Shown here in pieces: positions 606 to 52,764 of a stretch of 64,000 nucleotides of DNA. The DNA is from Candidatus Marinacidobacterium sp. (GTDB taxonomy: Bacteria; Acidobacteriota; Vicinamibacteria; Marinacidobacterales; Marinacidobacteraceae): NCBI GenBank assembly GCA_965204755.1, contig OZ242011.1, forward strand, positions 1,280,001 to 1,344,000. Direction: 5' to 3'. The translations under genes and the position numbers were made by a program. The notes beneath the pieces are model-generated. The model saw only the letters and a list, made by a program, of their open reading frames with translations, was not told where the DNA came from and did no database searches. Position 1 is the first letter of the stretch. Each line of letters begins with the position of its first letter.

Positions 606-616
606 CCGATCCCCCG

Positions 617-4107: not shown

Positions 4108-4139
4108 GGAACGAGCCTCCGGGAACACGGTTTTCGGCC

Positions 4140-4147: not shown

Positions 4148-4257
4148 GACCGGCTGACGCGGCTGCCGTCCGGTCGCCGAGCCCGTCCCGCGAGACGGGT
4201 TCGACGGGCCGGTCGTCGAGTGGCGGCCGTAGTTTCGCGAGCGTCGGATCGGCCGTT

Positions 4258-8199: not shown

Positions 8200-8298
8200 A
8201 CCGTCCGCCGGCCCCGAGGAAAACGCCGGCGACGCCGTGGAGGGCGCCGGGCCGCGGGAAGCCGGTACCCCGGAACCGAAGGTCCTGAAACGAACGCC

Positions 8299-9945: not shown

Positions 9946-9955
9946 GACCCCTCGC

Positions 9956-12012: not shown

Positions 12013-12108
12013 CCGCGCGGCGGAGACCGGCCCGGTTCCGAGCGTCAGCCACCGGGAGGACGCGCCCCGTTCCCCCGTCGGGGACGACGAGCGCGCCGGG
12101 CGCGCGAA

Positions 12109-13278: not shown

Positions 13279-13343
13279 TCAGGCATATTCTAGATTGACA
13301 TTTCGATTTACCTGTTTCCATGACCGAAGCCACGGTCGAGCGA

Positions 13344-15955: not shown

Positions 15956-16040
15956 TCGCCATCCCGGGTGGGATCGTAGCGCGCGCCGGCCCGCGGGGCG
16001 ACGCGGCCCGATGGCGCGAGGAAGAGCGGCTCGATTCCCC

Positions 16041-36294: not shown

Positions 36295-36362
36295 GGAAGG
36301 TTCTGGAATGTCCCCGGCGGTCCGCCGGGGTTCGGGGTCGTGGGCGGCGCGGCCGGTGGCGG

Positions 36363-36372
36363 ATGATATATT
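36363..36372. promoter_or_regulatory. Overlapping divergent -10 boxes (TGnTATATT on +, TATCAT on -)
   Basis: ATGATATATT in the spacer between the divergent genes starting at 36294(-) and 36429(+). Confidence 0.55.
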
Positions 36373-36428
36373 GGCGCCGGCCTCCCGAAGGGGGGCGTTT
36401 CGAGTCAGTTTCCGGCGGCGGGTTGGCG

Positions 36429-37991
36429 ATGCGTTCCGGTTCACCGGCCGCTGTCCGGCGCCGCCGGCCCGTCGTTCGGCGCGGCCTCGCCGGGTGCGCG
36501 CGACCCGGTCGGGGCCTCCTGTTGGGGGGCGGCGCGGCGTGGCTCGCGGCGGCGGCGGTAGCCGGTCAGGAGCGCCCGCGGTCGGCGGCGCCGGAGGAAG
36601 AGGCCGGCGAACGCGGAGCGGCGGCCCCCGCTGCCGCCGAGGGCGACCCCGCCGCCGAGTACCCCTTCGAGGCGCCCGCGGACCTGACGCTCGGGACCGA
36701 GCCGCAGAGCGCCGATGTCACCGGCCAGTTGGGGGTCCCCGACGGGGACTACATCCCCGAGGTCTTCCAGTATCGGCGGCGCGGGACCCAGCGCACCCAG
36801 GCCGGTCTCGGGGGCGAGCACCGTTCGGCCGCGCTCACCGAACTCCGGGTCATCGACGGCTTCGTGGAGCCGGGCGGCGTGGTGCGGGGCATCGCCCGCG
36901 TCGAGCCGGCGTTCGAGAAGGGGCGGCGTTTCGTCGCCGAGTTCTGGAGCCAGGACTACGGCCGCGCGGCGGTGGTGTACATGAACTTCCGCCCCCACCG
37001 GAAGGACAAGAACCTCTATCTCGGCCGGGGCCGGGTGGACCGCCACCATCCGGGCGGCCGCTACAACATCGGCTCGACGATGATCACCGACGAACACGGT
37101 CACAAGAAGGCCTACTCCAGCGAGTTCAACCCGGTGATGCGCGCGGCGGACGGCACGCCGGCGTTCTTCGTCGTGGCGGAGAACGAGGAGGCGGACCTCA
37201 CGCCCCCGACCCTGGTTTCGCTCGAGGTGCTGACGCCGGAAGTCGGCCCGGGCGAAACCGTCCGGGTGGAGGCCTTCGCCGAAGACGACCTCGCCGGCCC
37301 GACCCAGGCGCGGACGGTGTTCGTGAGTCCCTCGGGCCGCCGGAGCGTTCGCGCGGACCTGATCGGGGACGCCCGCCGTCCCGGCCGCTTCCTGGGCGCC
37401 TTCACGATTCCCGAGTGGTACGAGGGCGGGAAGTGGACCGCGCAGCAGGTCGCGTTGTACGACGCCGCCCGGAACGAGGCGCTGCTCTTCGCCGCGACCG
37501 ACCCGGCGCTCCGCGGCGCCGTCGTCACGGTCGAGGCGGATCCGGGGAAACGGGACGACGAGCCCCCGGTGCTGCTCGCCCTCGAACTGCCGCAGCGGGA
37601 AGCGGCCGCCGACGAAGCGATCCCGGTGGCCGCCCTGGTGACCGACGAGGGAAGCGGCGTGGACGAGGTCCATGTGTCCTTTCTGAGCGCGAGCGGCGCG
37701 GACCTGGTGCGCGTGGAACTCCTGAGCCGCAACCCGCCGCTCAACCGTCCGTCGCTCGTGCCGCAGCCGAATGTGTTCCGCGGCGCGCTGAAGATCGAAG
37801 ACTGGCGCGAACGCGGGCGGTACGCCGTGTCGCGGGTGAACCTGTCCGACCGGGCCCGGAACTACCGGAACCTGAACCCGGTGCGGGACGAGTCGGTGCG
37901 CGGCCTGTCGGTGGTCTACCTCGGCGGGGAACCCGACGGCGAACCGCCGGAGCCGCCGCCGGACCGGGCGCCGCGCGGCGGCCGCCGCTGA
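36429..37991 (+). CDS. Exported hypothetical protein with three Ig-like beta-sandwich repeats
   Basis: Signal peptide; repeats marked by DLTPPTL / DDEPPVL, (ED/TD)..(AG/SG), F.S.SG and G.(W/Y)......D.ARN. Confidence 0.7.
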   Translation: MRSGSPAAVRRRRPVVRRGLAGCARPGRGLLLGGGAAWLAAAAVAGQERPRSAAPEEEAGERGAAAPAAAEGDPAAEYPFEAPADLTLGTEPQSADVTGQLGVPDGDYIPEVFQYRRRGTQRTQAGLGGEHRSAALTELRVIDGFVEPGGVVRGIARVEPAFEKGRRFVAEFWSQDYGRAAVVYMNFRPHRKDKNLYLGRGRVDRHHPGGRYNIGSTMITDEHGHKKAYSSEFNPVMRAADGTPAFFVVAENEEADLTPPTLVSLEVLTPEVGPGETVRVEAFAEDDLAGPTQARTVFVSPSGRRSVRADLIGDARRPGRFLGAFTIPEWYEGGKWTAQQVALYDAARNEALLFAATDPALRGAVVTVEADPGKRDDEPPVLLALELPQREAAADEAIPVAALVTDEGSGVDEVHVSFLSASGADLVRVELLSRNPPLNRPSLVPQPNVFRGALKIEDWRERGRYAVSRVNLSDRARNYRNLNPVRDESVRGLSVVYLGGEPDGEPPEPPPDRAPRGGRR

Positions 37992-38045
37992 GCGGAGGCG
38001 CCGGCCTCCGAAGCGACCGCCGCCACGCGAAGAGGAACGCCTACG

Positions 38046-39287
38046 ATGCTGCCGATGGAACTGGACCGCCGGACATTCCTGGGAGCCGGCTTGGGCGCCG
38101 GCCTCGGTTCCGGGCTCGCCGCCGGACTCGGTGCAGCCGAGCCCGCCCTGGCCGTCGGGCGGGACGAAGGGGTCCCCGACCGCAGTCTTCGCGCGAAACA
38201 CCTCGTCGTCATCATCTACGGCAACGGCTGCCGGAAGAAGGACACCGTCGAGGACCCCGCCCACGCGCCCCATCTCGCCCGGATGATGAAGGACGGGACC
38301 GTCTTCACCGAGGACTTCGGCGAGACCGCGAACCTGCACGGCTACCTGTACACGGAACTGCTCACCGGCCGGGAGACCGTCTCGGAGCACCCGCTCTACC
38401 CCACCTGGACGGAGATCTGCCGGAAGGAACTGGGCGGCTCCCCGAACGACTACTGGATGCTGCAGGGCGTCAGTTACTACCGGTCGTGGGTGTACGACCG
38501 CAAGCACTGGAGCGCCCACCCGGAGGGCGGTCTGCAGTTCGGCGCGAACTCGCTGACCATGAACAAACTGTTCCACGACGACGAGCGGCGCTCTCCCGCC
38601 CGACTCGTCCGGGAGAACATCGAACTCGGGCTCGGCCACACGAAGACCAGCCTACGGGCGGTCGAGGACTGGATCGCCGACGCCGTGAGCCGGAGGCTCG
38701 ACCTCCCGGCCTCGACCCGGACGCCCTTGGTGGACCGGGAAGTTCCGCTCGGCGACGGACAGTGCTTCGAGATCGCGAAGCACCTGCTCGCCGCGTTCCG
38801 CCCCAAACTGATCACGATCCAGATGCTCGCGCTCGACGACGCCCACGCCGACGCCGGTTTTTGGGACTACGACACCGACTACGAGCAGTACCGGCAGCAC
38901 ATCGCGGCTACGGACGAACTCATCGGGAACCTGTACGACTTCATCCGGGCCGACCCGCGCCTCCGGGACACGACCGCGATCCTGCTGCGCCCGGAGTGCG
39001 GACGCGACGACGAAGTGAACGCGTACGGCCAACTCCACCACTCGCAGGGGAACTACTACGCCCACAATGTGTGGACCTTGGGAGTCGGGCCGGACTTCCG
39101 GGAGGGGGCGGTGTTCCCCGAAAAGGTGATGCGGCGCGACCTCTGCCCGACGGTGGTGTACGCGCTGACCGGACGGGACCTGGCCCGGCGCGCCTCCGGA
39201 TCGGTCCGCACGCAGTTGTTCCGGGACGAGCACCGCCTGCCGCGGTACATCCGGCGCGACCGCTTCGGGAACCCGGTCGCGGATTGA
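38046..39287 (+). CDS. Tat-exported alkaline-phosphatase-superfamily-like protein
   Basis: Twin-arginine signal DRRTFL; AlkP-like core strands KHLVVIIYG, LDDAH, TDELIG.L, TAILLRPECGR and DLCPTV. Confidence 0.7.
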   Translation: MLPMELDRRTFLGAGLGAGLGSGLAAGLGAAEPALAVGRDEGVPDRSLRAKHLVVIIYGNGCRKKDTVEDPAHAPHLARMMKDGTVFTEDFGETANLHGYLYTELLTGRETVSEHPLYPTWTEICRKELGGSPNDYWMLQGVSYYRSWVYDRKHWSAHPEGGLQFGANSLTMNKLFHDDERRSPARLVRENIELGLGHTKTSLRAVEDWIADAVSRRLDLPASTRTPLVDREVPLGDGQCFEIAKHLLAAFRPKLITIQMLALDDAHADAGFWDYDTDYEQYRQHIAATDELIGNLYDFIRADPRLRDTTAILLRPECGRDDEVNAYGQLHHSQGNYYAHNVWTLGVGPDFREGAVFPEKVMRRDLCPTVVYALTGRDLARRASGSVRTQLFRDEHRLPRYIRRDRFGNPVAD

Positions 39288-40057
39288 CCGCGGGGAGCGG
39301 AGGGGTGCCCGGTCGCGCGCGCGGACGGCGAACGGACGCCGGCATCGGGCTCGTCGTCGGTCCGGTCCTCGGGGTCGCTCCGCGGTTCGTCGTCGCGGCG
39401 CTGGCCGCCGCGCTCCTCCTGCTGCCCGGCGTGTCCGGCGCGGACGGCCGGACCGCCGGCCGGCAGCCGGTCTCGGCCGGCGGCCCCGCGGACCGGAGGG
39501 CGCCCGTCGCCCGGCCGCCGCAGCATCCCGGGCCGCGGCGGCCCACGCTGGCGGAGGCTGCCCGCCGGAACCGGGAACGGATCGCGAGGAGCCGCCGCCG
39601 GGGAGGACCGGCGCCCCGATACGACGACGCGGCCTTCCCCGCCGAGCGCGCCCCCGACGGCGCGGATCCCGGGCCGGCGGAGTCGTCGGCGCCCCGCTCC
39701 GTCCCCTCCGCCGCCGGCCGGCGGAGCGGGGAAGGATCCCCGGAAGGTGAGCCGTCCCCCGAAGCCTCGGAACGCCTCGGCCTCCGCGACTCCGGATCTC
39801 GAGGAGAGACCTCCGCCGAGGACCGAGCCGCGGCCCGCCGGGAGCGGGAGCAGGCCCTGCGCGAACGGCTGCTCGACCTGGAGTGGTCGCTCGCCGCCGT
39901 CGGCGCGAGCGGCCTCCCGTACGCGCCGCGGAATCCGAACCGGGCGCTCGACCCCCTCGGCGCCGGGCGGCTCCGCGCTCGGCAGGAGGAGATCCGCCGG
40001 GAACTCGCCGCCCTGGCCGAGAAAACCGCCGCCGGGAAGAGACGACCGCCCCGGTAG
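39284..40057 (+). CDS. Exported hypothetical protein
   Basis: TTG overlaps the upstream TGA; hydrophobic signal-like segment, TLAEAARR motif and C-terminal coiled coil; 3' part of ORF 36110..40057. Confidence 0.55.
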   Translation: MTAGSGGVPGRARGRRTDAGIGLVVGPVLGVAPRFVVAALAAALLLLPGVSGADGRTAGRQPVSAGGPADRRAPVARPPQHPGPRRPTLAEAARRNRERIARSRRRGGPAPRYDDAAFPAERAPDGADPGPAESSAPRSVPSAAGRRSGEGSPEGEPSPEASERLGLRDSGSRGETSAEDRAAARREREQALRERLLDLEWSLAAVGASGLPYAPRNPNRALDPLGAGRLRARQEEIRRELAALAEKTAAGKRRPPR

Positions 40058-40066
40058 GGGCCGGCC

Positions 40067-40088
40067 CGCCGCCGGGCCGCCGGCGGCG
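40067..40088. terminator. GC hairpin between convergent genes
   Basis: Perfect 9-bp stem CGCCGCCGG / CCGGCGGCG with a 4-nt loop; no U-tract. Confidence 0.4.
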
Positions 40089-40091
40089 ACT

Positions 40092-41048
40092 TCAGCGGAG
40101 CGTGAGCAGCAGCGGGGGCCCGTCCGGGCGTTCGAGCAGGACGGACTCCGAGGGTTCGATGACGGCGACGCGGTATCGGCCGATCCGGTCGCCGGCGGTC
40201 ACCAGCACCGTCTCCCCCTCGTGGAAGAGCGCCGCCCGCACCGGCTCACCCGACCCCAAGTCCACGAACCCGTGGAGTTCGGGCGCCCGCGGAACCTCCG
40301 GCGGGCGGAACGGCGCGGGCGGCTCTCGCTCCACCGAAGGCGCCGCGCGCCCGGCGGGTTCACGCGGCCGGGGCGGCGGCGCAGCGGCCCGGAGTTCCCG
40401 ACCGGCCGCGGGAAGCCGCGCTTCGAGCCAATCGGAAACGGCCTCGATCTCCTCGATCTCCTCGTCGAGGCGGGCATCCCCTCCCGCGGCGGCGCCGGAG
40501 TCCACGCCCTCCTCCGGCCACAACACCGATGCCGCGGCGGTGAGAACCGTCGGCCGGCCGGCGCCGGCGGCGCTCGGCTCGGTGAGTTGCGCCCGGTCGA
40601 ACCGGAGCGGCCAGCCGCCGGCTTCCATCGCGGACACGAACTCGATCAGGTCCGCTGTCCGCCCTTCGGCGGTGAGTTGGGCCTCGGCGCCGGCGGTTCC
40701 CCGCGGCGGGCGGGCGAGCGGCGCGAGCCGAACCGAAGTGAGGTCCACGCCGCGAGGCGCGGCGAGATCGAGGAGGCGCGCCCGGACCTCCGCCACGCTC
40801 CGGGGCCCGGGGGGGCGCCGGTCGAGCAGCGCCGCCAGCCGGGCCAGGCGCTCCTCCCGTTCCCTTCCCCGCTCGACTTCCCGCCGGGCGCGCTCCGCGT
40901 ACTGCTCGGCCGAGGCTCGCTCGGAACGCCGGTCGAGCGCCGCGCGCCGCTCGATCCAGACGAGCGCGGTCAGCGCCGCGAGGAGCACCGTGAGGAGCGC
41001 CCGCAGTCGGAGGGAAACCCCGGCGCCGTGAACGAAACCCGCGGTCAC
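40092..41048 (-). CDS. PilO/GspM-like protein with C-terminal PilP/GspC-like domain
   Basis: TM helix, coiled coil and ferredoxin-like segment (LTAEG...LIEFVSAME), then Pro linker and ELHGFV...AL...GDRIGRYRV..I....VLL; GTG at 41048. Confidence 0.6.
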   Translation of the reverse strand: MTAGFVHGAGVSLRLRALLTVLLAALTALVWIERRAALDRRSERASAEQYAERARREVERGREREERLARLAALLDRRPPGPRSVAEVRARLLDLAAPRGVDLTSVRLAPLARPPRGTAGAEAQLTAEGRTADLIEFVSAMEAGGWPLRFDRAQLTEPSAAGAGRPTVLTAAASVLWPEEGVDSGAAAGGDARLDEEIEEIEAVSDWLEARLPAAGRELRAAAPPPRPREPAGRAAPSVEREPPAPFRPPEVPRAPELHGFVDLGSGEPVRAALFHEGETVLVTAGDRIGRYRVAVIEPSESVLLERPDGPPLLLTLR

Positions 41049-41638
41049 GGCGCCCCTCCTGGTTTTTCGCGGCCTTCCGCCCGCTCTTCGGTACCGGGGA
41101 CGGCAGGCGGTTCGGTGGAGATCCGGGAGGTGATCTCGACGACCACGCTCCCGTCCCGCTGCCGCCGCTCCGAGATCACTTCCGCCGCCAGCACCGCGTC
41201 CGACCGAAGCAGCGCGCCGAGGAGGCCGGCCACCGCTGCGGCGTCGGACGCTCGGGCGGACAGGGACGCCTCGGCCGCCGCGCTCCCGCCGGCGGCCGGC
41301 GCCGGCCGGATCGCGACCCCCGTCAACCGGACTCCGGGCGGAGCCGCGCCGCGCACCGTGGTGAACGCTTCCGCCAGTCGCACTCCCCCGACCGCGCCGG
41401 ACAGCATCAACACCGCAGCCTCCCGGCGCGCCGCCGCGGCGTCCGTCGCCGGCGCGACGGCGGCGGCCGCGCCTCCGGGCGCGGGCGCCTCGGCGGCCCC
41501 TTCGGCCCGCAACCGGAAGAGGGACACGGCGCCGGTCACGGCCGCGACCGCAAGGCCCGCGAGGGCCGCGTCGAGCAGGAACCGCACTCCGGGGCGCGGA
41601 CGCCGACCGAGTTGGACTCCCGGCGGAATCCGCGCCAT
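41045..41638 (-). CDS. PilN-like protein (degenerate)
   Basis: TM helix then PPGVRLTGV motif; lies between the pilM-like and pilO-like genes. Confidence 0.55.
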   Translation of the reverse strand: MARIPPGVQLGRRPRPGVRFLLDAALAGLAVAAVTGAVSLFRLRAEGAAEAPAPGGAAAAVAPATDAAAARREAAVLMLSGAVGGVRLAEAFTTVRGAAPPGVRLTGVAIRPAPAAGGSAAAEASLSARASDAAAVAGLLGALLRSDAVLAAEVISERRQRDGSVVVEITSRISTEPPAVPGTEERAEGREKPGGAP

Positions 41639-41659
41639 GGGTCGGGCCGCGCCGGGGAC

Positions 41660-42616
41660 CTAGACCGCGGCCGCCGGTCGGGAGGCCAGCGCGGACGGCC
41701 GGACGCCGACCCTTCGGAGGAGCGCCGCGAGCGCATCCTCCCGAATCGGGGGCGCCGGGCCGGAAACCGACTCGCCGGCGCCCGGCGGTCGGGCGCGGGT
41801 GTCCGGTTCCGCCTCCCCGGCCGGCGAACCGCCGGGCAGCCCGAGCAGCGCCCGGACTTCGGCGGCCCCTTCCCCGCGGACGGAGACCGCCTCGGCGCCG
41901 GCGCTCCCCGTCAGTTTGCGGACCGCGGCCGCCGGCGGTTCCGGATCGAGCGCCGCGCGCAACTTGAGCCGGAAGGCCGTGAGCCGGTTCCCGGCGGCGG
42001 CGGCGACGGCGAAATGCCTCCGATGGAGCGCCGCCAGGATCCGCTCTCCGGCGCCGCGGCCCGCCGCGAGCCACTCGGGAAGGATCGCCAGCGTCGGCGT
42101 GTCCACCCAGCGCACTTCGAGGCCGACCGCCGCCGCCACCGATTCGTACTGCGAGACCACCGCGGCCGAGGCGCAGGCGCCGAGCAGCGAGCGCCGCCGA
42201 AGCGGGCCGCTCGGGATCGCGCCGAAGCGAACCCGGCCCGGCGCCGGCCGCGACCCGGGGTCGCTCCCGGCGGCGAGGCCGGCGGCGAGATCCAGCAGCA
42301 ACCGCCTTCGCCCCCCCGCGCCCGGCGTCTCGGCGAACGCCACCGCCACCGCCCGGTCCGGGATCGCGAGCACGGCCTCGGTGAACGGCCCGCCCGGGTA
42401 TTCGCCGTCCGGTTCCGAGAGCCGCTCCAAGGCGCTCCCGAGCGCCCGCGCCGCGTCGGCGGTCGAGGAGAGGTTCGGCTCGGAAGAGGACGCGCGCAGG
42501 AGGTTCTCCGGGAGACGCCTCTCGACCCACCGCCCGTCGCCGGAGCGGAGGAACAGCCGCTCGGCGCCGAACGCGATTCCGACGGTGCGGCGGCGTTTCG
42601 ACCGGAACCGGCGCAT
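41660..42616 (-). CDS. PilM/GspL-like actin-fold protein (degenerate)
   Basis: ATG at 42616; motifs VGIAFG, LPENLL..S..EPNL, AVLAIPD and VVSQYE.V..AVGL....VD. Confidence 0.6.
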   Translation of the reverse strand: MRRFRSKRRRTVGIAFGAERLFLRSGDGRWVERRLPENLLRASSSEPNLSSTADAARALGSALERLSEPDGEYPGGPFTEAVLAIPDRAVAVAFAETPGAGGRRRLLLDLAAGLAAGSDPGSRPAPGRVRFGAIPSGPLRRRSLLGACASAAVVSQYESVAAAVGLEVRWVDTPTLAILPEWLAAGRGAGERILAALHRRHFAVAAAAGNRLTAFRLKLRAALDPEPPAAAVRKLTGSAGAEAVSVRGEGAAEVRALLGLPGGSPAGEAEPDTRARPPGAGESVSGPAPPIREDALAALLRRVGVRPSALASRPAAAV

Positions 42617-42645
42617 CTTGGTGCAGGGAAGCCCGAACGCCGCCG

Positions 42646-42655
42646 ATGGTACAAT
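42646..42655. promoter_or_regulatory. Overlapping divergent -10 boxes (TGnTACAAT on +, TACCAT on -)
   Basis: ATGGTACAAT lies between the pilM-like gene (-) and the EF-G paralogue (+). Confidence 0.6.
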
Positions 42656-42769
42656 TCGCGGTTCGCCCGGCGGCGGTTCGCCGGGTCTCTCTCCGATACT
42701 TCTTGCGTTTCTTCTCGGAGCCCCTCGAACGCCCGTTCGATCCACCCGCTTCCGGCGCCGACGATGGCC

Positions 42770-42870
42770 GCCCGTGGAGAAAGTCCGGGGAGCGGTCCTC
42801 GGCGCGAAGCGCCGATCGGGAAGGCGCGCCGGAAGGGGGTGTCCACTTCCCCGCGACAGCCAGCGGGGGC
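42770..42870 (+). repeat. Partial (left-end) copy of the MITE-like element at 45015-45235
   Basis: GTGGAGAAAGTCCGGGGAGCGG and TCGGCGCGAAGCGCCGA are identical to 45021-45062, and similarity continues to CCCCGCGA.AG...GCGGGGG. Confidence 0.8.
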
Positions 42871-42947
42871 TTCGGGCCTTCCGGTGGAGGAGCGGAGGGC
42901 GGAGCGCTTCTTCCGCGGCCTGACCGCGCCCCGACGCCGACGGAAGC

Positions 42948-45014
42948 ATGAATTCGAAAGGCCTCCCCCACCTCCGCACCCTCGCGGTCGCCGGACACGG
43001 CACTTCGGGCAAGACCACCTTGGTGTCCGCGCTGCTCTACCAGGCCGGCGCGGAGACCCGACTCGGCCGGATCGAGGAAGGCAACACGGTCACGGATTAC
43101 GACGAAGACGAGATCGAACGGGGAATCAGTCTGGGAGCGGCCCTCGCCTCCTGCGAGTGGAACGAAGTCCACCTGAACCTGGTGGACACCCCCGGATACG
43201 GCAACTTCATCACCGAGGCGAGTTTGGCGATGCCGATCGCCGACACGGCGCTCGTCTCGGTGTGCGGCGTGGACGGCGTCCAGGTGAACACCGAGCGGGT
43301 CTGGGGATTCGCCGAGTCGGCGGGCGCCGCCGCGATGCTGGTCGTGAACCGGCTGGACCGGGAACGGGCGTCGTTTACGCGCGCGCTCGCGGGGATTCAG
43401 CGAGCCTTCGGCCGAACCGCGATTCCGGTGCAGTTGCCGATCGGAGAAGAGGCGGAATTCCGCGGCGTCCTGGATCTGATCTCCATGAAGGCGCATCTCG
43501 GCCCGGGCCCGGACGGCCGGACCGTTTCCCTCTCGGAGGCGCCCGGCGAGATGCAGGCGGCGGCGGAGACCGCAAGATCGGAACTCATGGAGATGATCGC
43601 CGAGTCCGACGAGGAACTGCTCGAACATTTCTTCGAGGCCGGTGAACTGAGCGAGGAGCAGATGCTTCGCGGCCTCGCCGCCGGGGTGGCCTCCCGCTCC
43701 ATCTTCCCGGTGTTCGCCGCCGCCGCGGCGCGGAACATCGGCACGACCGCGCTCCTCGACGCCATCACCGCCGTCGCTCCGGCCCCGGCCCGACGGGGCC
43801 CGGCCAAGGGCCGCGGGCCGGACGGCGAGCCGGCGGAGCGCGAGGTGTCCACTTCGGCGCCGGCGAGCGTCTATGTGTTCAAGACCATCGCCGACCCGTT
43901 CGCCGGGCGGCTGAGCCTGTTCCGGGTGATGACCGGCTCCGTGAGCGCCGACACGCCTCTCCGCAACCTTCGCACGGGCGGAGCGGAGCGGCTGGGAAGC
44001 GTGTACCGGATGAACGGCAAGGCGACCGACGCAGTGGCCTCGCTCGGCGCCGGAGACCTCGGCTGCTTCGCGAAACTGCGGGACACGGCGACCGGAGACA
44101 CCCTGGCGGTGGACGACGCCGTCCGCTATCTCCGTCCGGAAGTGCCGCGGCCGGTCATCAGTTTCGCCATCGAACCCAAGTCGCGGGGTGACGAAGAAAA
44201 GATCTCCCAAGCCCTCCAGCGCCTCGGCGAAGAAGACCTCACGCTCACTTTCGAGAGGGACCGGGAACTGAGACTCTCCGGCACGGGCCAACTCCACATC
44301 GAAGTCGTAGTTTCCCGGCTGAAGCGCAAGTACGGCGTCGAAGTGACGCTCAAGCCTCCGCAAGTGCCTTACCGGGAAACGATCACCGCCAGCGCGGAGG
44401 CGCACGGACGGCACAAGAAGCAGACCGGCGGACACGGACAGTTCGCGGATTGTCATGTGCGCGTCGAGCCGCTTCCCCGCGGCGCAGACTTCGTCTTCGA
44501 GAGCAAGATCGTGGGCGGCGTGATCCCCAAGCAGTTCATTCCCGCCATCGAAAAGGGTTTCCAGGAAGCGCGGCAGAAAGGGTATGTGGCCGGCTATCCG
44601 GTCGTGGACTTCAAGGCGACCGTCTTCGACGGCAAATTCCACGCGGTGGACTCCTCCGAGATCGCTTTCAAGATCGCCGCGTCGCTGGCGTTCCGCGACG
44701 CCATGTCCCGGTGCCGTCCCACTCTGCTGGAGCCGGTGATGGCCGTGGAGATCACGGTTCCCGAAGAGTCCACCGGCGATGTCCTCGGCGACCTGAACGC
44801 GCGCCGGGGCCGGACGCAGGGCATGGACACGAAGGGCGATACGATCGCGATCACCGCGCAGGTCCCGATGGCCGAGATGCTCACCTACGAACCGACCCTG
44901 ACCTCGCTCACGGGCGGCCGCGGCGGCTTCCGGATGGAGTTCTCCCATTACGACCCGGTGCCGCCGAACATCGCCAAACAACTGATCGACGCCCACAACG
45001 CCGACAGCGAATAG
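42948..45014 (+). CDS. fusA2: Elongation factor G paralogue (EF-G2-like)
   Basis: Motifs GHGTSGKTT, ERGISL, DTPGYGNF, NRLD, KKQTGGHGQF and DSSEIAFK; G-domain motifs are of the divergent EF-G II type. Confidence 0.9.
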   Translation: MNSKGLPHLRTLAVAGHGTSGKTTLVSALLYQAGAETRLGRIEEGNTVTDYDEDEIERGISLGAALASCEWNEVHLNLVDTPGYGNFITEASLAMPIADTALVSVCGVDGVQVNTERVWGFAESAGAAAMLVVNRLDRERASFTRALAGIQRAFGRTAIPVQLPIGEEAEFRGVLDLISMKAHLGPGPDGRTVSLSEAPGEMQAAAETARSELMEMIAESDEELLEHFFEAGELSEEQMLRGLAAGVASRSIFPVFAAAAARNIGTTALLDAITAVAPAPARRGPAKGRGPDGEPAEREVSTSAPASVYVFKTIADPFAGRLSLFRVMTGSVSADTPLRNLRTGGAERLGSVYRMNGKATDAVASLGAGDLGCFAKLRDTATGDTLAVDDAVRYLRPEVPRPVISFAIEPKSRGDEEKISQALQRLGEEDLTLTFERDRELRLSGTGQLHIEVVVSRLKRKYGVEVTLKPPQVPYRETITASAEAHGRHKKQTGGHGQFADCHVRVEPLPRGADFVFESKIVGGVIPKQFIPAIEKGFQEARQKGYVAGYPVVDFKATVFDGKFHAVDSSEIAFKIAASLAFRDAMSRCRPTLLEPVMAVEITVPEESTGDVLGDLNARRGRTQGMDTKGDTIAITAQVPMAEMLTYEPTLTSLTGGRGGFRMEFSHYDPVPPNIAKQLIDAHNADSE

Positions 45015-45235
45015 CAGCCTGTGGAGAAAGTCCGGGGAGCGGCTGTCGGCGCGAAGCGCCGACCGGGGCGGGGTGCGGGGAGGGAGTATCCCCCTCCCCG
45101 CGATAGTCGGCGGGGGGAATCGCGCAGCGATTCGCGCCGCCGGTCCGTGGGAAGAGCGCCCCGCCGGGAAACGCGACAGGGACTTCGCGTCCTCCGCTCG
45201 ATGAGCAGAGGGCGGGGTGCTTTTTCCACGGGCCG
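45015..45235. mobile_element. MITE-like non-autonomous element (~220 bp)
   Basis: Imperfect terminal inverted repeats CAGCCTGTGGAGAAAG / CTTTTTCCACGGGCCG, three internal hairpins, a second partial copy 2.2 kb upstream and no transposase. Confidence 0.65.
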
Positions 45236-45255
45236 ATAACGGCGCCGGACGGACC

Positions 45256-48200
45256 ATGCCGTCTCTACCGGTCGGGCTTCCCGCCCGCTATACGGATCCC
45301 GAGACCGGATTCCGTGACCTGTGCCGGTTCCTGGGCATCCCGAATCGGCAGTACCTGCAGCGTCTCGCGGCCCACCAGCGCGTCAGGGAGTTCTTCCGGC
45401 GCGAGAAGGCGTCGTTCAAGAACCTGAAGACGGCGGAGCGTCTCCGCGCCAAACTCACCCGGTTCCTTTCCGATCCGTCGAGCCGCCGGGAGATCTGGAT
45501 CGTACGGCGCAAGGATTCGCGGATCGCGTTTCCTTCTTTCGAACTCCAGGCGCTCAAGCCATACGACGAAAGCGAGAAGGCGCCTTCCGAAGAGGCCCTT
45601 CGCCGGAGTTTGGAGGACATTCCGAAGACCGACGGCATTCCGGGGAAGACGAGCGAGTGGCAGACACCGGCAGTCAACGCCTGGCCGGCGATTCGCGAGG
45701 ACATCAGCCGCTTCGACGAATTGGACGAAGAACACCGGGAAGTCGCCTCGGCCGCGGTATTCGCGGTAGCGACGCTGCTCGATCACCGCGGCTTCCTCGA
45801 ATGGGCGGCCGAGTCCGTGGACGACCTGGAGCCCGAGTTCGCTTTCGCCCTGGGCGTGGAAGATCCGAGCGAGGAAGACATCGCGGAGTGGTCGCGCGTA
45901 CACGACGAGAAGTGGGAAGACGCTTACGGTGAGTTCTTCGACTTCGTATCCGCCGCAGGACGAAGCGGCGTACCCCCCGACCGCTTCGACGAGACCATCC
46001 GGAGGGTGGAGGCGCTCGGCCGTTTGCGGGACGAGATCGTCGCGGATCGGGCGGCGGCGCTCCTGCTCGGGGAACTCTTCGAGAAACTGCACTCCATCCT
46101 GAAGGGGGCGGCGGAGAAGTGCGGGGCCGCATGGCTCACCGCGCTGCTTCCCGAGACGAAAGAGCGGTGGAAGACGCGGTACTCGCCGGTCGGAACTGAA
46201 GGCAGGGAGGCGTTCCAGGCCGATCTGTCCCGTCTCGGCGAGGCGCTGCCCGATGCGCTCGAGTCCTGGGAGCGCGCCGATATCGAAGTGGGCGAAGCCG
46301 AAGCGGAGCGGCAGCGACTTGCTTCGGAGGGCTCCCCGGAAACCGACTGGACGATCGAGGACCGGATCGTCGGGCTGCAGGAGCGAGTCGCGGCGGCGTC
46401 CCGGCGCCGCGTGGAAGCTCGCCGCCGCGTCATCGAGATCATCGCGCCCCGACCCGACGCCCCCGACCCGCCGAAACCGCGGCCGACGAAGAAGAAGGCG
46501 CGCCGCGGGAAAGCGCCCGACCGGGCAGCGAAGGGGAAGCGCGCGGGAACCACCGGGGAGCCGGCGGCCGAGGGCCCGGCGAAGGGAGCGAGTCGCCGCG
46601 CCGCGGCCGAGCGGGATCCGGCGAAGGAAGCCCGTGCGGCGGAGGGGCGGGGAAGACCGTCGAAACCGAAATCGGCGGACGCCGAACGACAACCGCCGGC
46701 CCGCCCCGAGGAAAGGCCGAAGGAGGGACCCGGAGAGACCCCGAAGGGGCGGCCGACCCGACGGCCCGAGGGACCGGCCGGTCGAGCGCCCCGGTCCCTT
46801 CCGGGCCCGGCGAAGACCGCCGGCGCAGCCGAGGCCGACAGGGCGCCGGCCGCGCCGCCCCCCCGACCACCTCCGCCGGCCGTCGTTCCGGCGCCCGAGC
46901 CTCATCGGGAGGCGGCAGCCGCTTGGACCGCGCTCCACGAAGGACGACCGGGCGCGGCGTTCTTCATCGCCCGGCTCGCGGACCCGCAACCGGACCGCGC
47001 TCCGGTGCTGCCCCCCGCCGACCTGATTGCGGCGACCGCGCTCGCCGCCGAGGTCCGGGCGCCGGGCGACGAGTTCGCCGCCGCCCTTCGCCCGATCCTC
47101 TCCGCCATCGACCCGGAGGGCTTCGCGGCCGCGGACGCCCGCGGCCAGGATGCGCTCAACCTCCTGCTCTTCAGTTCGACCCTGGCGCCCGCGCTCTTCG
47201 CGCCGGCGACCGGCGCTCCGTCGCTGCTGAGGCGGATCCACACGACAGAGCCGCTCTCGGCGGTCTATACCTTGGCTACCCGTATCGCCGAATACGCCGA
47301 GCGGCTTCACGGCACGCCGCTCGATATCTCGCTGCTGAGGAGCGCCCTGGGAACGGCGAGCCGCGAAAAGCAACTGGACGAGGTGGGCCGGCGAATCCGC
47401 GAGTGGTCGGTGGCCGTAAAGGCGAAGACCAACCCCCTGCCGCGGGCGGCGCAGGTGCTCACGGCCCTGCTCACCAACGGCTGTCTGGCCGACCTGACGG
47501 AGGCAGTCGCTTCCGGCCGACCGGCGGACCGCGGCCGGGTCGAGCGAATCCTGGAGGAGTTGGGCGCCACGCGGCTTCCGGCGCTGTCCGAAGGGGTAAC
47601 CCGCGAGTTCGAAGCGCTCGTCCACCACAGCGACCGCCGCACCGGCGCGCGGCCGATCAACGAGAAGGCGCTTCGGCAACTCTGGAAACATGTCCACCCG
47701 GCCATCGAGCACGCCCACGAGTGGCTGCGGCTGGTGTCGCGATCGACCGGAGAACGGAAGGGGTACCTGCGGGACCTGATCGTCTCGCTGCGCCGGGACC
47801 TCGAAGAAGAGAGCGACAAGGCGCTGTCGGCGATCTCCGAAGTCGAGGCAGCCGCCCCGGACGCTTCGGAATTGGCCGCCGGTCTGTCGCGCGCCCGGTC
47901 CGCGATCTCGACGCTCCGGCACATCTTCGATCGTCGGGCGCTGTCGGCGGCGCCGCCGCCGAAGCCGGAGATCGTTCGGTACGGCGACTTGGCGTTGGTG
48001 ACCGCGCTGGACCTGGGCGCCGACCTTCGCCCCCGCGCGCCATTCGACCGGGGCGCGGTGCTGGAGGTCCTGCTCGACCGGGAAGGACACGCGGCGACCC
48101 GTTCGGCGGCGTTCCGAGGGCGCCTCGCCCGCGTGGATCTGGTTGGCGCCGGCCTCGCGCTCTCGACGATGGAGGCTCGCGGCGACGAGGGGACCGCCGA

Positions 48201-51200
48201 CTGCCGGCGCGATCTCATCGAGACGGCCGAGCAGCGCCGCTTCACGCTCAACGAAGAACTCGCCAAGGAGACCGCCCGGATCGAAGGCGCGTTCTGCCAA
48301 GGGCGGCTGGGTGACGAACGAAACGACCTGGCGGCGCGGCTGGTCTCACTGGCGCAGGCGCTCGCCGCGCCGGGACGGCCCGGTGAGCCCGGCGCCGGGG
48401 TAGTGGAAGCCGTGGTGGGCGCCGAGCGCGAACTCGAGGAGATCCGGCGCGCCGCCGGGACGATGAGCGCCAAGCGGATTGCCGCCGCCCGGCGTCGGCT
48501 CGAGGAACTCCCCGAGAGCGCCGACCGGCAGGGGCTCGCCGAGGCGCGCGCGGCCATAGACGCCGGACACCTGCTGACCGCCCACGAATACCTGCTCCAA
48601 CTCGAACAGGGGGAGTCGTTCCTGCGTCCGCCGGAGGAGCCGAGCCCGTTCCGGGAGTTCGTCTCCCGGGCGGCCGTCCTCGACGAGGCCCTGCCGCGGT
48701 ACGAACCGGAGCGCGTCATCGCCGGCCTTTCCCGGCGGCAGGGGTTGGCCGGAATCCGCTTCGGCGAACTCGACGCCGAACAGGCGGAGCGCGGAGCGCG
48801 GCTGTTGAAGGCCTGGTATCGACTGGCGGCGAAGCGCGCCTACGACCAGCCGCTGCTCCAGCGATTCCTGGAGGAACTGGGGTTCACCGGCTGCCGCGTG
48901 TCGGCGGACCGGGGAACTCGCTCCTACTTGGGGTCCATGGACTTCGAGCGGCTCGCGGACCGCGACCTCTGCCCGTCCCGGCAGTTCGGGTCGGAAGCGG
49001 ACGGCCGCTACCGCCTGCTGCTGAACTGGGCGCCGAATGTGGAGGAGGCGATCACGCGGTCCGTAGGGGTTTCCGGCGACTCGCCGACCCTCGTACTCCA
49101 CTTCGGCTGTCTCGGCGCGAGCCGGGAGGGCCTGCGCCGGCTGGCCCTGCGCGATCAGCGTCTCTTCCTGGTCCTCGACCATTCGCTCGCAGTCTTCCTC
49201 GCGAGTCGGGGCTCGGGCCTTTCCGCTTTCTTCCGCGCGGCGTTGCCGTTCGCTTCCGCCGACCCGTACGCGCCCACTTCCGGCGCCGTGCCCCCCGAAT
49301 TGTTCTACGGCCGGGAGCGGGAGCGCCGCGACATCGCCGACCGCTCCGGCGCCTGCTTCATCTACGGCGGACGACAACTCGGGAAGACCGCCCTGCTTCG
49401 CCGCGTCGAGAACGATTTCAACGAGACCTCCGGTCAGGTGGCGCTGTGGATCGACCTCAAGGTGCACGAGATCGGTTACGCCAGAGGGCCTCGCGACATC
49501 TGGCCGCTCATCCGGGACGGCCTTTCGGAGCGGGGAGTGCTGTCCCGCCGGCGAGGAGAGTTGGACCCGGCGAACCTCCGCCACATCGAGACCCTGCTGA
49601 AGGCGATGGCCGAATGGGTGGCCGGACGCAAGGACCGCCGCCTCCTCCTGCTTCTCGACGAGGCGGACGAATTCCTGTCGCAGGACGCCGGCAGCGACTT
49701 CCGGGAATCGGCCCGCCTCAAGGGGCTGATGGACCGGACCGACCGCCGGTTCAAGGTCGTGTTTTCCGGACTCCACAATGTACTGCGCACGACGCAACAG
49801 GCGAACCATCCGCTCGCCCACTTGGGCGAGCCGGTTCGAGTGGGGCCGATGCTGGGCGGGCGGGACGAGCGGAAGAGCGCCGAGGCGCTGGTTCGCCAAC
49901 CGCTCGAGGCGGCCGGCTGCCGCTTCGAACGGGACGATTTGATCCACCGCGTCCTCGCGCAGACGAACTACTACCCGTCCCTCATCCAACTCTACGGCGC
50001 CGAACTCGCCCGCCGGGTGCGCGACCTCCAAAAACCGTTCCCCTATCTGGTCTCGGACGCGGAACTCGACGAAGCGTACGGCAGCAGCGAACTGCGCGAC
50101 GCCATTCGAGAGCGCTTCTTGCTCACGCTCCAACTCGATCCTCGATACGAGGTCATCGCCTATGCGCTCGCCTTCGAGTTGAAGGATCACCCGGTCCTGA
50201 ACGACGGGATGGGACGCGACGAGATCCGGGATGCCGCAGAGGGCTGGTGGCCGGACGGCTTCCGGATCCCCGATATCGAGTTCCACATGCTGCTCGAGGA
50301 GATGGACGGACTCGGCGTCCTGCGATCGCTGGACGGGAGTCGCTACACCTTGCGCAACCCGAATGTGCTGCTGTTGCTCGGCAACACGGAGCAGATCGAG
50401 AAGAACCTCGACAAGCCGCGGTCGCTCCCGGCGACTTACGAGCCGGCGTCGTTTCGGGCTCGCTACCCGCGCGAAGGCCCGCGAGCGAAACGCCGAGGGC
50501 CCTTGACCTATCTTCAGGAGGACCGTTTGAGACGCCCCGGCGTCGCCGTGGTCACCGGGAACCGCGCCGCCGGCCTCGCGGAAGTAGAGGCGTTCCTGTC
50601 ACAGCGAAGCGAACAGCGGAACGGGGTGGAGGAGTTTCGCGTACTGCCCCGACCGAACGGGCTGGACGACTTCGTTCGGCGCCTGGGCCGGATCTCGCCG
50701 CCGGCCGCGGGCGTCTCGGTCAACCTCGTACCGCTGGACACCCGCTGGAACACCCAGTGGCTCGACGCTGCCCGGCAGTTCTGCCGGACGCGCCGCAACA
50801 GCCTTCGGATCCGGGTCGTCTTCCAGGCCGACCCGGAGCAGTTGTGGCGTCTCGAAGACGAATTCCCGGTGGCCGACTGGCCCGGGATCGACCGCATCGA
50901 AGTCCGTCCCTGCGACGCGATCTTCGTGCGCAGTTGGCTGGACGATGTCAACCTGCAGCACGACGAGGAGACGATCACCGAACTCCTCGAGGTCACCGGC
51001 GGCTGGCCGGCCGGCCTGTTCGAACTCAACACCGGCCCCACCAAGGACTGGAGTTTCCGCATCGCCGAACTGCGGAAGAAGGCCGCCCGCACGCCGAGCG
51101 GGGAGCAACTCGGCCTGGCGTCGAATCCGGCCGCGGCAGAGGCGCTCCGGCGGTTGGCCGAACTCGAGGAGCCGTTCTCCCAGGAAACGATCGAACTGTT

Positions 51201-51345
51201 GGCCGAAGACAGCGCCGCGGCGGGCGCCACGATCCGCCGCCAGGTGGAATGGGCCCGGCGTCTCGGACTCGTCGAAGCCGGCGGAACCGGCGTCTTCCGG
51301 TTGAACTCCCTGGTCCGGAGTCGCCTCGCCGAGTTCACCGACTGA
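45256..51345 (+). CDS. Giant (~2030 aa) STAND-like P-loop ATPase
   Basis: Motifs DPY......PPELFYGRERE, Walker A GGRQLGKT, Walker B LLLLLDEAD, KVVFSG, TNYYPSLIQ and a wHTH-like LGVL......YTL. ATG at 45256 is preferred because the ORF-track start lies inside the MITE end. Confidence 0.85.
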   Translation: MPSLPVGLPARYTDPETGFRDLCRFLGIPNRQYLQRLAAHQRVREFFRREKASFKNLKTAERLRAKLTRFLSDPSSRREIWIVRRKDSRIAFPSFELQALKPYDESEKAPSEEALRRSLEDIPKTDGIPGKTSEWQTPAVNAWPAIREDISRFDELDEEHREVASAAVFAVATLLDHRGFLEWAAESVDDLEPEFAFALGVEDPSEEDIAEWSRVHDEKWEDAYGEFFDFVSAAGRSGVPPDRFDETIRRVEALGRLRDEIVADRAAALLLGELFEKLHSILKGAAEKCGAAWLTALLPETKERWKTRYSPVGTEGREAFQADLSRLGEALPDALESWERADIEVGEAEAERQRLASEGSPETDWTIEDRIVGLQERVAAASRRRVEARRRVIEIIAPRPDAPDPPKPRPTKKKARRGKAPDRAAKGKRAGTTGEPAAEGPAKGASRRAAAERDPAKEARAAEGRGRPSKPKSADAERQPPARPEERPKEGPGETPKGRPTRRPEGPAGRAPRSLPGPAKTAGAAEADRAPAAPPPRPPPPAVVPAPEPHREAAAAWTALHEGRPGAAFFIARLADPQPDRAPVLPPADLIAATALAAEVRAPGDEFAAALRPILSAIDPEGFAAADARGQDALNLLLFSSTLAPALFAPATGAPSLLRRIHTTEPLSAVYTLATRIAEYAERLHGTPLDISLLRSALGTASREKQLDEVGRRIREWSVAVKAKTNPLPRAAQVLTALLTNGCLADLTEAVASGRPADRGRVERILEELGATRLPALSEGVTREFEALVHHSDRRTGARPINEKALRQLWKHVHPAIEHAHEWLRLVSRSTGERKGYLRDLIVSLRRDLEEESDKALSAISEVEAAAPDASELAAGLSRARSAISTLRHIFDRRALSAAPPPKPEIVRYGDLALVTALDLGADLRPRAPFDRGAVLEVLLDREGHAATRSAAFRGRLARVDLVGAGLALSTMEARGDEGTADCRRDLIETAEQRRFTLNEELAKETARIEGAFCQGRLGDERNDLAARLVSLAQALAAPGRPGEPGAGVVEAVVGAERELEEIRRAAGTMSAKRIAAARRRLEELPESADRQGLAEARAAIDAGHLLTAHEYLLQLEQGESFLRPPEEPSPFREFVSRAAVLDEALPRYEPERVIAGLSRRQGLAGIRFGELDAEQAERGARLLKAWYRLAAKRAYDQPLLQRFLEELGFTGCRVSADRGTRSYLGSMDFERLADRDLCPSRQFGSEADGRYRLLLNWAPNVEEAITRSVGVSGDSPTLVLHFGCLGASREGLRRLALRDQRLFLVLDHSLAVFLASRGSGLSAFFRAALPFASADPYAPTSGAVPPELFYGRERERRDIADRSGACFIYGGRQLGKTALLRRVENDFNETSGQVALWIDLKVHEIGYARGPRDIWPLIRDGLSERGVLSRRRGELDPANLRHIETLLKAMAEWVAGRKDRRLLLLLDEADEFLSQDAGSDFRESARLKGLMDRTDRRFKVVFSGLHNVLRTTQQANHPLAHLGEPVRVGPMLGGRDERKSAEALVRQPLEAAGCRFERDDLIHRVLAQTNYYPSLIQLYGAELARRVRDLQKPFPYLVSDAELDEAYGSSELRDAIRERFLLTLQLDPRYEVIAYALAFELKDHPVLNDGMGRDEIRDAAEGWWPDGFRIPDIEFHMLLEEMDGLGVLRSLDGSRYTLRNPNVLLLLGNTEQIEKNLDKPRSLPATYEPASFRARYPREGPRAKRRGPLTYLQEDRLRRPGVAVVTGNRAAGLAEVEAFLSQRSEQRNGVEEFRVLPRPNGLDDFVRRLGRISPPAAGVSVNLVPLDTRWNTQWLDAARQFCRTRRNSLRIRVVFQADPEQLWRLEDEFPVADWPGIDRIEVRPCDAIFVRSWLDDVNLQHDEETITELLEVTGGWPAGLFELNTGPTKDWSFRIAELRKKAARTPSGEQLGLASNPAAAEALRRLAELEEPFSQETIELLAEDSAAAGATIRRQVEWARRLGLVEAGGTGVFRLNSLVRSRLAEFTD

Positions 51346-51449
51346 GCGCCCGGCGACCGGGCGGAGCGACCGGGTTCCCGCGCCGGGTCGGCATGCGCCG
51401 GCCGCGGCCCGACAACGGGTCCCGACCGGCCGTAAGGCGGAAGTCCCTG

Positions 51450-51803
51450 CTACTCGACGAACTCGATTCGAGCCATGGGGGCGCCGTCGCCGGCCCTCGG
51501 CCCCAGTTTCAGGATCCGCGTATAGCCCCCCGGCCTGGTCTGGAACTTCGGCCCGACCTCGGAGAAGAGGTGGCGGACCACCTCCTTCTGCGGCAGGACC
51601 TGGAGCGCGCGCCTTCGGGCGGCGAGATCCGAACGGCGGGCGAGAGTCACGAGCCGCTCCACGAACGGCCGCACCTCCTTCGCTTTGGCGAGCGTGGTCC
51701 GAAGATGCCCGTGCCGGATGAGCGTAGCCGCCAGATTCCGCAGCAACGCTCGGCGGTGCGAGGGGCGGCGCCCCAACTTCCGGTGGGCGTTACGGTGCCG
51801 CAT
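51450..51803 (-). CDS. rplQ: 50S ribosomal protein L17
   Basis: MRHR...KLGR and [19 protein letters not shown]. Confidence 0.97.
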
Positions 51804-51816
51804 CTTCCCGTGCCCC

Positions 51817-52764
51817 TCAGCCGGCCCCCATGCCGAGATGGAGGTTCATGTTCTTCAGCACCTTCTCGATTTCCTCGATGCTCTTCCGCCCGAGGTTGCG
51901 CTCCTTCATCAACTCCTCGGCAGTCCGCACGACCAGTTCTCCGATCGTGCCGATGTCCGCGTTCCGAAGGCCGTTGAAGGCTCGCACCGAGATCTTGTCG
52001 CCGATCTCGTCGATCGACTTGTAGCGATGGGTCTCGAAGGCGATCTGCTCCTCGTTGACCACGACTGCTTCGGCGTCCTCGCCGTCCCCTCCGGAAAAGA
52101 TGCCGAGCATCTCCCGGAGCACGCGAGCCGAAGTGAACAGCGCATCGGTGGGTTTCACCGAGCCGTCCGTGTGCACATCGATGACGAGTTTGTCGAGATC
52201 GGTGTCCTGGCCCACGCGCGCCGGCTCCACCGTGTAGTTCACCTTGCGGACCGGGGAGTGGGTCGAGTCGAGCGGGATGTAGCCGATGTCGAGATCCTCG
52301 TCCCGGTTCTGGTCCGCCGGAATTCGACCGCGCCCGTTCTTGACCCGCATCTCGATGTCGAGGTCGCCCGGCTCGGTCATCGTGGCGATGTACACATCGT
52401 CCTGCAGGACTTCCACATTCGGATCGGTCTCGATGTCCGCCGAAGTCAGGACCCGGGGTTCCTTCGCTCGCAAGCGAATCGTCCGGGGAACATTCCCGTG
52501 CAGCCGAAGCGGAACCGTCTTCAGGTTCAGGATCATGTCCATCGTGTCTTCCTTGACTCCGGAGATCGTGGACATCTCGTGCCGCACTCCCGCGAACCGG
52601 ACGGCGGTGACCGCCGCGCCCCGGATCGAGTCGATCAGCACGCGGCGAAGGGAGTTCCCCACGGTCACGCCGTAGCCGCGCTCGAAGGGCGCCGCCGAAA
52701 AGCGACCGTAAGTCTCCGTGCTCTCGACGACCTTGACGGCGCGAGGCCGCTGCAGTTCAGACAT
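51817..52764 (-). CDS. rpoA: RNA polymerase alpha subunit
   Basis: [42 protein letters not shown] and NLGRKS. Confidence 0.97.

Follow-up and report, generated by a model that had tools for sequence, protein, structure and literature searches.

The window analysed here, a 64,000-nucleotide (nt) stretch of contig OZ242011.1 from Candidatus Marinacidobacterium sp. of the phylum Acidobacteriota, carries on its plus strand a gene for a giant ATPase of 2029 amino acids (aa) at 45256-51345, the stop codon included. The gene is real and intact, as its open frame and its full-length relatives indicate. It belongs to a family in which the ATPase is commonly followed by a smaller partner gene, and on the branch leading to the window copy this partner has been lost. 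On balance, we lean towards regarding the gene as a member, without an effector, of a large mobile two-gene family that would constitute an undescribed STAND-based conflict system.

Of 8000 candidates scored in a word-indexed search with the giant protein, 251 matched at E <= 0.001. The matches listed include many proteins of about 2000 aa aligned over 99-100% of the query at 33-42% identity, with closer ones at 65-96%. When the C-terminal 880 aa were scanned exhaustively without a profile, 3352 cluster representatives matched at E <= 0.001, and 2015 of these reached 1e-30 or lower. A pattern scan of 185,579 GTDB species genomes (one genome per species) confirmed 364 genomic places. The protein is thus no orphan, as it had been called in a first-pass annotation made from the sequence alone. 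Phyla holding the family include Acidobacteriota, Gemmatimonadota, Pseudomonadota, Cyanobacteriota, Spirochaetota, Binatota, Nitrospirota and Bacillota, among others, and the module is present on 28 plasmid records. Relatives are named 'hypothetical protein', 'ATP-binding protein' or 'AAA family ATPase' in their sources, and none above 3552 aa was found in a search of limited sensitivity. Eight of 31 close genomes match, a floor obtained with a stricter first look, all of them in the window's own family (seven of 18 there without its own genome). Across the phylum, five of 201 sampled genomes match, own genome included, which leaves four of the 200 others, and universal vertical conservation is therefore not seen. 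In a quick maximum-likelihood tree of 77 rows (LG+G4, SH-aLRT support only, midpoint root for drawing) the phylum labels require 21 changes against a minimum of 15, and the copies from five same-family genomes lie in the major clade that does not include the window copy. Flanking genes are conserved among close kin only, and on the Salinibacter plasmid pSR118 the canonical gene pair sits between transposase genes. By these comparisons, the family is large, unnamed, horizontally mobile and patchily spread. A separate observation concerns the modules of loci L018 and L020, from bins labelled Latescibacterota and Gemmatimonadota, which are nearly identical (tree path about 0.075); this reflects either a recent transfer or a binning or labelling problem.

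The usual form of the family, to judge from gene order, is a two-gene operon. When crude six-frame calls of open reading frames (ORFs) from 80 loci were clustered all-against-all, a same-strand gene of about 370 aa directly 3' of the giant gene emerged in 66 of them, and it is the sole neighbour conserved across clades. In 63 of the 66 the partner begins within about 210 nt of the giant gene's stop codon or overlaps it, often by 4 nt. The idea of a single-gene system is consequently not supported for the family, in which the partner missing from the window copy is conserved.

No Pfam or PADLOC family was found in the partner, and a PDB search with a partner profile returned nothing significant. 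In its predicted structure (predicted local distance difference test score, pLDDT, 92.6), residues 262-362 form a helical domain, and R340, N341, L343 and H345 are invariant in 35 partner sequences, giving the motif RNxLAH. This motif ends the third long helix (327-344) of the model, with helix 351-362 coming next. A survey of HEPN domains, which have four helices, places an Rx4-6H motif at the end of helix 3, with N typical after R (PMC3710099), and the partner model has such a motif, with a polar residue after the Arg, in that very place. Fifteen of the 35 partners match Pfam PF18731 HEPN_Swt1 weakly (best E 0.014), and one each matches DUF4145 and HEPN_Apea. The partner probably combines an inactive, Walker-A-less AAA+/STAND-like domain with a Swt1-like HEPN RNase domain, as far as the predicted model and motif indicate. 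Comparison of the partner with the 880-aa module by hhalign was not significant, and the predicted complex of the L012 pair (NTPase and C-terminal part with partner residues 1-260) scored 0.00, which speaks neither for nor against binding.

In the window, 35 partner queries found nothing over the full 64 kb, and one such query found nothing in the whole of the window's own genome, which is 89% complete. The site of the partner gene in relatives corresponds to a 104-nt spacer at 51346-51449, which runs directly into the end of rplQ on the minus strand. A congener, also Ca. Marinacidobacterium sp. (L011), has the same order of EF-G paralogue, giant gene, rplQ and rpoA, and no partner either. About 7 kb lies between its giant gene and rplQ (L011:12685-19770), with ORFs of about 900 aa, and is absent from the window. 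This extra stretch was considered and dropped, as it holds no Pfam family save one weak fn3 match and no partner. The window copy and that of the congener are together sister (SH-aLRT 99) to nine Vicinamibacterales-type rows, all of them partner-bearing, and this placement indicates that the partner was lost on the window/congener branch. The position beside rpoA is shared with the congener only.

Despite partner loss, the window gene appears to be under purifying selection, as judged by sequence comparison. It keeps every invariant column of a 72-sequence alignment. Compared with the congener, the gene as a whole has a ratio of nonsynonymous to synonymous substitution rates (dN/dS, Nei-Gojobori) of about 0.39. 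The NTPase and winged-helix parts lie lower, at about 0.2, and the linker reaches about 1; all these values are rough because dS is near saturation (proportion of synonymous differences, pS, 0.43-0.52). The intact gene and the same rplQ junction recur in metagenome contigs from other studies' runs, one of which covers 45206-52500 with 36 differing letters.

The protein contains a predicted active STAND-type nucleoside triphosphatase (NTPase) unit at aa 1336-1722 (49261-50421, plus strand), made up of a nucleotide-binding domain, a helical domain and a winged helix. Its Walker A (GGRQLGKT, aa 1371, nt 49366-49389) and Walker B (LLLLLDEAD, aa 1463, nt 49642-49668) motifs, both on the plus strand, are intact and fall in invariant or almost invariant columns. 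Pfam recognises nothing beyond AAA_22 and AAA_16, at aa 1350-1508; AAA_22 scores 28.8 bits against a cut-off of 27, and ATPase_2 matches below its own (16.9 against 33.2 bits). From 72 sequences, AlphaFold modelled aa 1150-2029 at a mean pLDDT of 89.3. Structure matches of aa 1336-1722 in this model are to plant NLRs (17.4, 16.6), ORC2/Cdc6 (about 14-15), MuB and TnsC (13-14.6), CED-4 (14.2), MalT (12.3) and BrxC (12.1), and Foldseek agrees. In the predicted model the segment is the nucleotide-binding/helical/winged-helix unit of STAND/ORC-type ATPases, in keeping with the first-pass reading of a STAND-like ATPase.

As in STAND proteins, a P-loop domain with intact Walker A and B motifs is followed by a helical domain and a winged helix. 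Typical STAND proteins are further defined by a superstructure-forming repeat sensor C-terminal of the NTPase; Pfam found no repeat family of the TPR, WD40 or LRR kind there. The sole PADLOC-DB 2.0.0 row for the giant protein is mad8 at E 0.049 over 65 residues, which is not significant, and NCBIfam likewise gave no significant match. PDB sequence searches with the whole protein, with the 880-aa profile and with a profile of the N-terminal 1149 aa were not significant, and in the Atlas the C-terminal 880 aa matched nothing but AAA_22 and nSTAND1-type clusters. The first-pass reading of a protein without a recognisable effector of its own is thus borne out by Pfam, PADLOC and NCBIfam, and no described system or family is matched in the libraries searched, PADLOC v2.0.0 included.

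The anatomy proposed for the rest of the protein is borne out segment by segment in charge, composition and motif coordinates. Among 338 relatives compared by BLAST, aa 1-550 are covered in only 40-55% (the head itself in about 40-50%) and aa 556-2029 in 84-99%, an unevenness which indicates that in this family a variable head precedes a conserved core of about 1470 aa. This variable N-terminal head, aa 1-397 (45256-46446, plus strand), was delimited by its charge profile: a basic start (aa 1-90, net charge +13) gives way to an acidic helical part (aa 91-397, net charge -30). A stretch at about aa 17-40, judged by eye, may resemble a helix-turn-helix. Of 295 family members, 208 share the window's head type. 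Neither Pfam nor the PDB gave a match to aa 1-397, and no shorter stand-alone relative of the head was found in a search of limited sensitivity. A sigma-like head was considered and rejected: hhalign of the N-terminal half against a sigma-fused cyanobacterial head paired only the core start, and the window head is therefore not detectably sigma-like.

Next comes a linker rich in Pro, Lys, Arg and Ala, defined by composition at about aa 398-555 (46447-46920, plus strand); of the 156 residues at aa 398-553, 36 are Pro and 37 are Lys/Arg. Its identity with the congener is 21%, and the proportion of nonsynonymous differences (pN) about equals pS. Contigs of two runs from different studies share an in-frame 3-nt deletion at 46758-46761, which fits weak constraint on the linker. 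The conserved helical middle region, aa 556-1209 (46921-48882, plus strand), where the family core starts according to the coverage by relatives, aligns to the cyanobacterial form (hhalign probability 97.4) and to a pPIWI-RE-fused plasmid form, both described below. No Pfam, PDB or Atlas match and no repeat family was found in aa 556-1209/1210, a Pfam tally over 42 N-terminal halves yielded scattered coiled-coil noise only, and the N-terminal 1149 aa matched nothing in any library searched.

Immediately before the NTPase, predicted strands and helices (pLDDT about 80-96) outline an alpha/beta domain at aa 1210-1334 (48883-49257, plus strand) with the motifs FGSEADGRYR..., FGSEADGRYRLLL (aa 1244), TLVLHFG (aa 1278) and FLVLD (aa 1304). 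Gly 1245, Gly 1250, Tyr 1252 and Asp 1308 are invariant in 72 sequences. The active restriction-endonuclease site once suspected here finds no support, Asp 1308 being the sole invariant acid in these sequences, with no second one and no invariant Lys. The residue after it is Glu in most members and His in the window protein. Lists of structure matches for the model of aa 1150-2029 were filled by the NTPase unit (model residues 148-573). The C-terminal unit, aa 1727-2029 (50434-51342, plus strand), was delimited by model secondary structure and conserved columns. It is modelled as a five-strand alpha/beta domain with a Gly-rich loop, GVAVVTGNRAAG, a helical part with TGGWP (aa 1914) and a winged-helix-like end, and may be an inactive second NTPase-like unit; the motif VAVVTGNRAAG is at aa 1763. 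Comparison by hhalign was not significant with either the active unit (probability 0.4) or the partner (0.8); in these weak, non-significant alignments TGGWP falls opposite TNYYPSLIQ, and GVAVVTG opposite the first strand of the partner. A profile of the unit gave no PDB sequence match.

Other members of the family bear different heads and different partners. In-frame sigma-70 (regions 1.2, 2, 3 and 4; Pfam E down to 1e-23) is present in eight giant cyanobacterial ORFs of about 2150-2440 aa and in one broken copy. The eight loci are L041 (Brasilonema, 5471-12664; next ORF 12708-16055), L042, L045, L048, L057, L067, L080 and L087. One sigma-fused copy lies on a Phormidium plasmid. In eight cyanobacterial loci the partner of about 370 aa is replaced, 3' of the giant gene, by an HKD(PLD)-SNF2 gene, whose protein is intact at five of them, with 1089-1115 aa, and is split or reduced to a fragment at the other three. 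This gene, intact or split, follows six of the eight sigma-fused loci, and the contigs of the other two, L057 and L067, end too soon. The HKD-SNF2 protein matches the PADLOC 'HKD+Snf2' model PDLC01075 at 2e-63, and DrmD-like matches were obtained too. A further variant is encoded on the Azospirillum oryzae plasmid NZ_CP054617.1 (L091:2002-11772), where a protein of 3256 aa has pPIWI-RE X, MID and RNaseH domains fused to the core; it can be aligned with aa 636-2007 of the window protein at 27% identity. Among the 28 plasmid matches, seven bear the name 'RNaseH domain-containing', similar ones being found on Bradyrhizobium, Azospirillum and Microvirga plasmids. The available part of the pPIWI-RE paper (PMC3702460) describes no ATPase fusion. 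Literature searches by family accession numbers and by pPIWI-RE with STAND, outside supplements that could list the family, gave no description of it, and broader searches yielded analogies only.

These features suggest how a system of this kind could work. The giant ATPase would both sense and switch: some signal linked to nucleic acid or transcription would alter its nucleotide state or assembly, and the altered state would release or activate the nuclease of the partner, a HEPN RNase in most loci and a DNA-targeting HKD-SNF2 enzyme in the sigma-70-fused cyanobacterial form. The window lineage and its congener lost the partner after the split from the partner-bearing Vicinamibacterales lineage, and the window copy, as an effector-less sensor/switch, would serve an unlinked effector or have acquired a new role. 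The analysis shows the gene, its family, the fold of the NTPase unit, the operon partner and its loss, and the patchy spread; that the family defends its hosts, how it is activated and that the partner cleaves RNA we infer. The setting of the gene is consistent with conflict systems.

A number of observations weigh against this explanation. The defence link of family members is inferential rather than experimental, and PADLOC v2.0.0 has no model for either the giant protein or the partner. The case for a HEPN domain is built from the motif, from where it lies in a predicted model and from Pfam matches below threshold, and the structure search of the partner covered residues 1-263 only, without the C-terminal helical domain. 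No phage record carries the module. Across phyla the module is about 40% identical, which is unusually conserved for an immune sensor. The neighbourhoods of homologues reveal the partner lost here. Otherwise, most genes flanking the 80 loci are ordinary metabolic ones (short-chain dehydrogenase/reductase, symporter, solute-binding protein, amidohydrolase). Defence-like neighbours are scattered only, with AAA_14-DUF4143 in six loci and AAA_27 in three of the 80. The AAA_27 cluster comprises L038, L052 and L083, the gene being immediately 5' in L052 and L083 and non-adjacent in L038, and tblastn also finds AAA_27 in two same-family loci, L005 and L004, the latter being identical with the L083 copy. 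As the cluster occurs in three of 80 loci only, AAA_27 (SMC-like) was dropped as a core component. Further partnerless copies exist in L011, L033, L035, L083 and the same-family loci L003-L007 (L004 being the L083 copy), which indicates that the giant protein can persist without the partner. The roughness of the dN/dS values, noted above, also tells against confidence in the selection argument. In L035, an Arenicellales metagenome-assembled genome, two giant-gene copies face apart, 1-5646 on the minus strand and 6683-12718 on the plus strand, neither with a partner of about 370 aa.

The persistence of partnerless copies in several lineages under purifying selection would also be expected of a self-contained single-gene defence protein (the first-pass proposal) with a cryptic effector in its head or in its pre-NTPase alpha/beta domain, the partner being dispensable. 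The head occupies the effector- or sensor-like place held by sigma-70 or pPIWI-RE in other members. In Avs proteins effectors directly precede the NTPase, as the alpha/beta domain does here. ECF-sigma-like helix-turn-helix domains, moreover, occupy the effector slot of some NTPase conflict systems (PMC8195603). We nevertheless think such a protein unlikely, since no enzymatic family was detected in aa 1-1334 and 66 of the 80 loci have the partner. The alpha/beta segment has one invariant acidic residue and no invariant Lys, and it is unlikely to replace the partner because it belongs to the core that is also present in partner-bearing members. The same sigma-70 fusions, together with the SNF2 partner, may be read as signs of a transcription role, in which case the protein would be a non-immune, transcription-linked regulator or remodeller, a giant analogue of MalT/LAL-type STAND proteins whose head docks on DNA or RNA polymerase. 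This is doubtful in view of the very patchy distribution (four of 200 other genomes of the phylum), the conflict of the tree with taxonomy, and the copies on plasmids and between transposases. The invariant RNxLAH of the partner, the HKD nuclease fused to SNF2 and the pPIWI-RE fusions also argue against it, and the position adjacent to rpoA is common to the congener only.

A bolder scheme, which we consider distinctly improbable, is that of an undescribed, transcription-coupled surveillance system. Exchangeable heads (sigma-70, pPIWI-RE, helix-turn-helix-like) would guide the giant STAND switch towards RNA polymerase, promoters or R-loops on foreign DNA, and the switch would then arm the HEPN RNase or the HKD-SNF2 nuclease. 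In the window's lineage the sensor would have been kept without its effector, as a domesticated regulator beside the rpoA operon. Finally, the absence of the partner in window and genome searches could mean that the gene is a decaying remnant, functionless after partner loss and merely still unbroken; split or frame-shifted giant genes do occur elsewhere (L032 and L071, and L047 with the sigma head as a separate ORF). There is very little to recommend this, however, given that a 6-kb frame is open in two congeners differing at 40% of residues, that pN lies well below pS in the core and not in the linker, that all invariant residues are kept, and that contigs from other studies carry the gene unbroken. 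The reading to which we incline remains that of a two-gene conflict system of which the window has an effector-less member.

The location of the gene is as first described, between an EF-G paralogue (42948-45014, plus strand) on its 5' side and rplQ and rpoA, which lie on the minus strand from 51450 and are convergent with it. The MITE-like (miniature inverted-repeat transposable element-like) sequence noted upstream is a true interspersed repeat of about 220 nt. Its copy at 45015-45240 lies between the EF-G paralogue and the giant gene, outside the latter, and stops about 16-30 nt 5' of ATG 45256. The repeat has 46 matches at 78-100% identity in the window's own 3.98-Mb genome, some of them tandem, with four head-to-tail copies at G000:C1:316624-317514 (G000 being that genome). 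It holds several internal inverted repeats and matched no Rfam family. The open frame extends from GTG 45217 to the stop at 51345, and from ATG 45256 the product is 2029 aa plus stop. This ATG is the likelier start codon, because GTG 45217 falls within the repeat element and the protein of the congener aligns from the equivalent residue.

The excess of T/A-ending codons suspected in the gene proved marginal, with G+C at third codon positions of 0.843 against 0.855 in the EF-G paralogue, 0.854 in rpoA and 0.873 in rplQ. One AGCT site does lie inside the giant gene, as reported, but the window has three (9410, 46416 and 52815) rather than two. Some palindromic tetranucleotides are strongly avoided in the window as a whole, with ACGT observed 0 times against 111 expected, AGCT 3 against 119 and CTAG 3 against 44, and this avoidance may reflect restriction or methylation pressure in the lineage. 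At about 39000-42500 the G+C content rises to 78%, compared with 70% for the window, and long overlapping ORFs occur on both strands, for example 36110-40057, 39747-41663 and 41612-43645, with no Pfam family. An Rfam scan of 40-56 kb of the window found nothing, promoter and terminator scans performed no better than on shuffled sequence, and no RNA data set carrying the locus was among the public runs listed.

If the proposed role holds, the family would represent a widespread two-gene immune or conflict module missed by current catalogues, with thousands of sequence clusters across many phyla and some plasmids. Its anatomy would be unusual, combining an active STAND ATPase and a putative inactive unit in the same chain with a third inactive unit on a separate HEPN protein. 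The sigma-70 and pPIWI-RE fusions would, if this is true, provide a direct handle on the way in which STAND switches read nucleic-acid or transcription states. Meanwhile, the window copy would offer a natural experiment in which a sensor has long been kept without its effector.

A number of likenesses to known systems can be drawn, each with its own differences. The archaeal Walker-type ATPases PABY2304 (2qen) and SSO1545 (2fna), of the ATPase_2/PF01637 family, are about 350 aa long and 16-17% identical, and have no counterpart to the 1330 aa that precede the unit in the window protein or to the 300 aa that follow it. In comparison with Avs/AVAST proteins, plant NLRs and CED-4/Apaf-1, the window protein shows no PADLOC Avs/NLR match and no detected TPR, LRR or WD40 sensor. 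It has about 1330 aa N-terminal of the NTPase and a putative inactive unit C-terminal of it, and the family's candidate effector is encoded by a separate gene. A parallel may be seen in BREX, where BrxC, an active ORC/STAND-like ATPase, has an inactive STAND protein, BrxB, as its counterpart, and in BREX-related systems, where HKD-helicases serve as effectors (PMC12839542). No BrxC, PglY or DUF499 match was found, however, nor a conserved PglZ or methyltransferase gene near family loci; the ATPase here lies in the C-terminal half and not at the N-terminus as in BrxC, and the family partner carries a HEPN-like domain. Lastly, pPIWI-RE systems comprise a stand-alone form and a three-gene form with a restriction endonuclease and a DinG helicase (Burroughs et al. 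2013, PMC3702460). The window protein is without PIWI, whereas distant members of its family bear a complete pPIWI-RE module on the core polypeptide itself.

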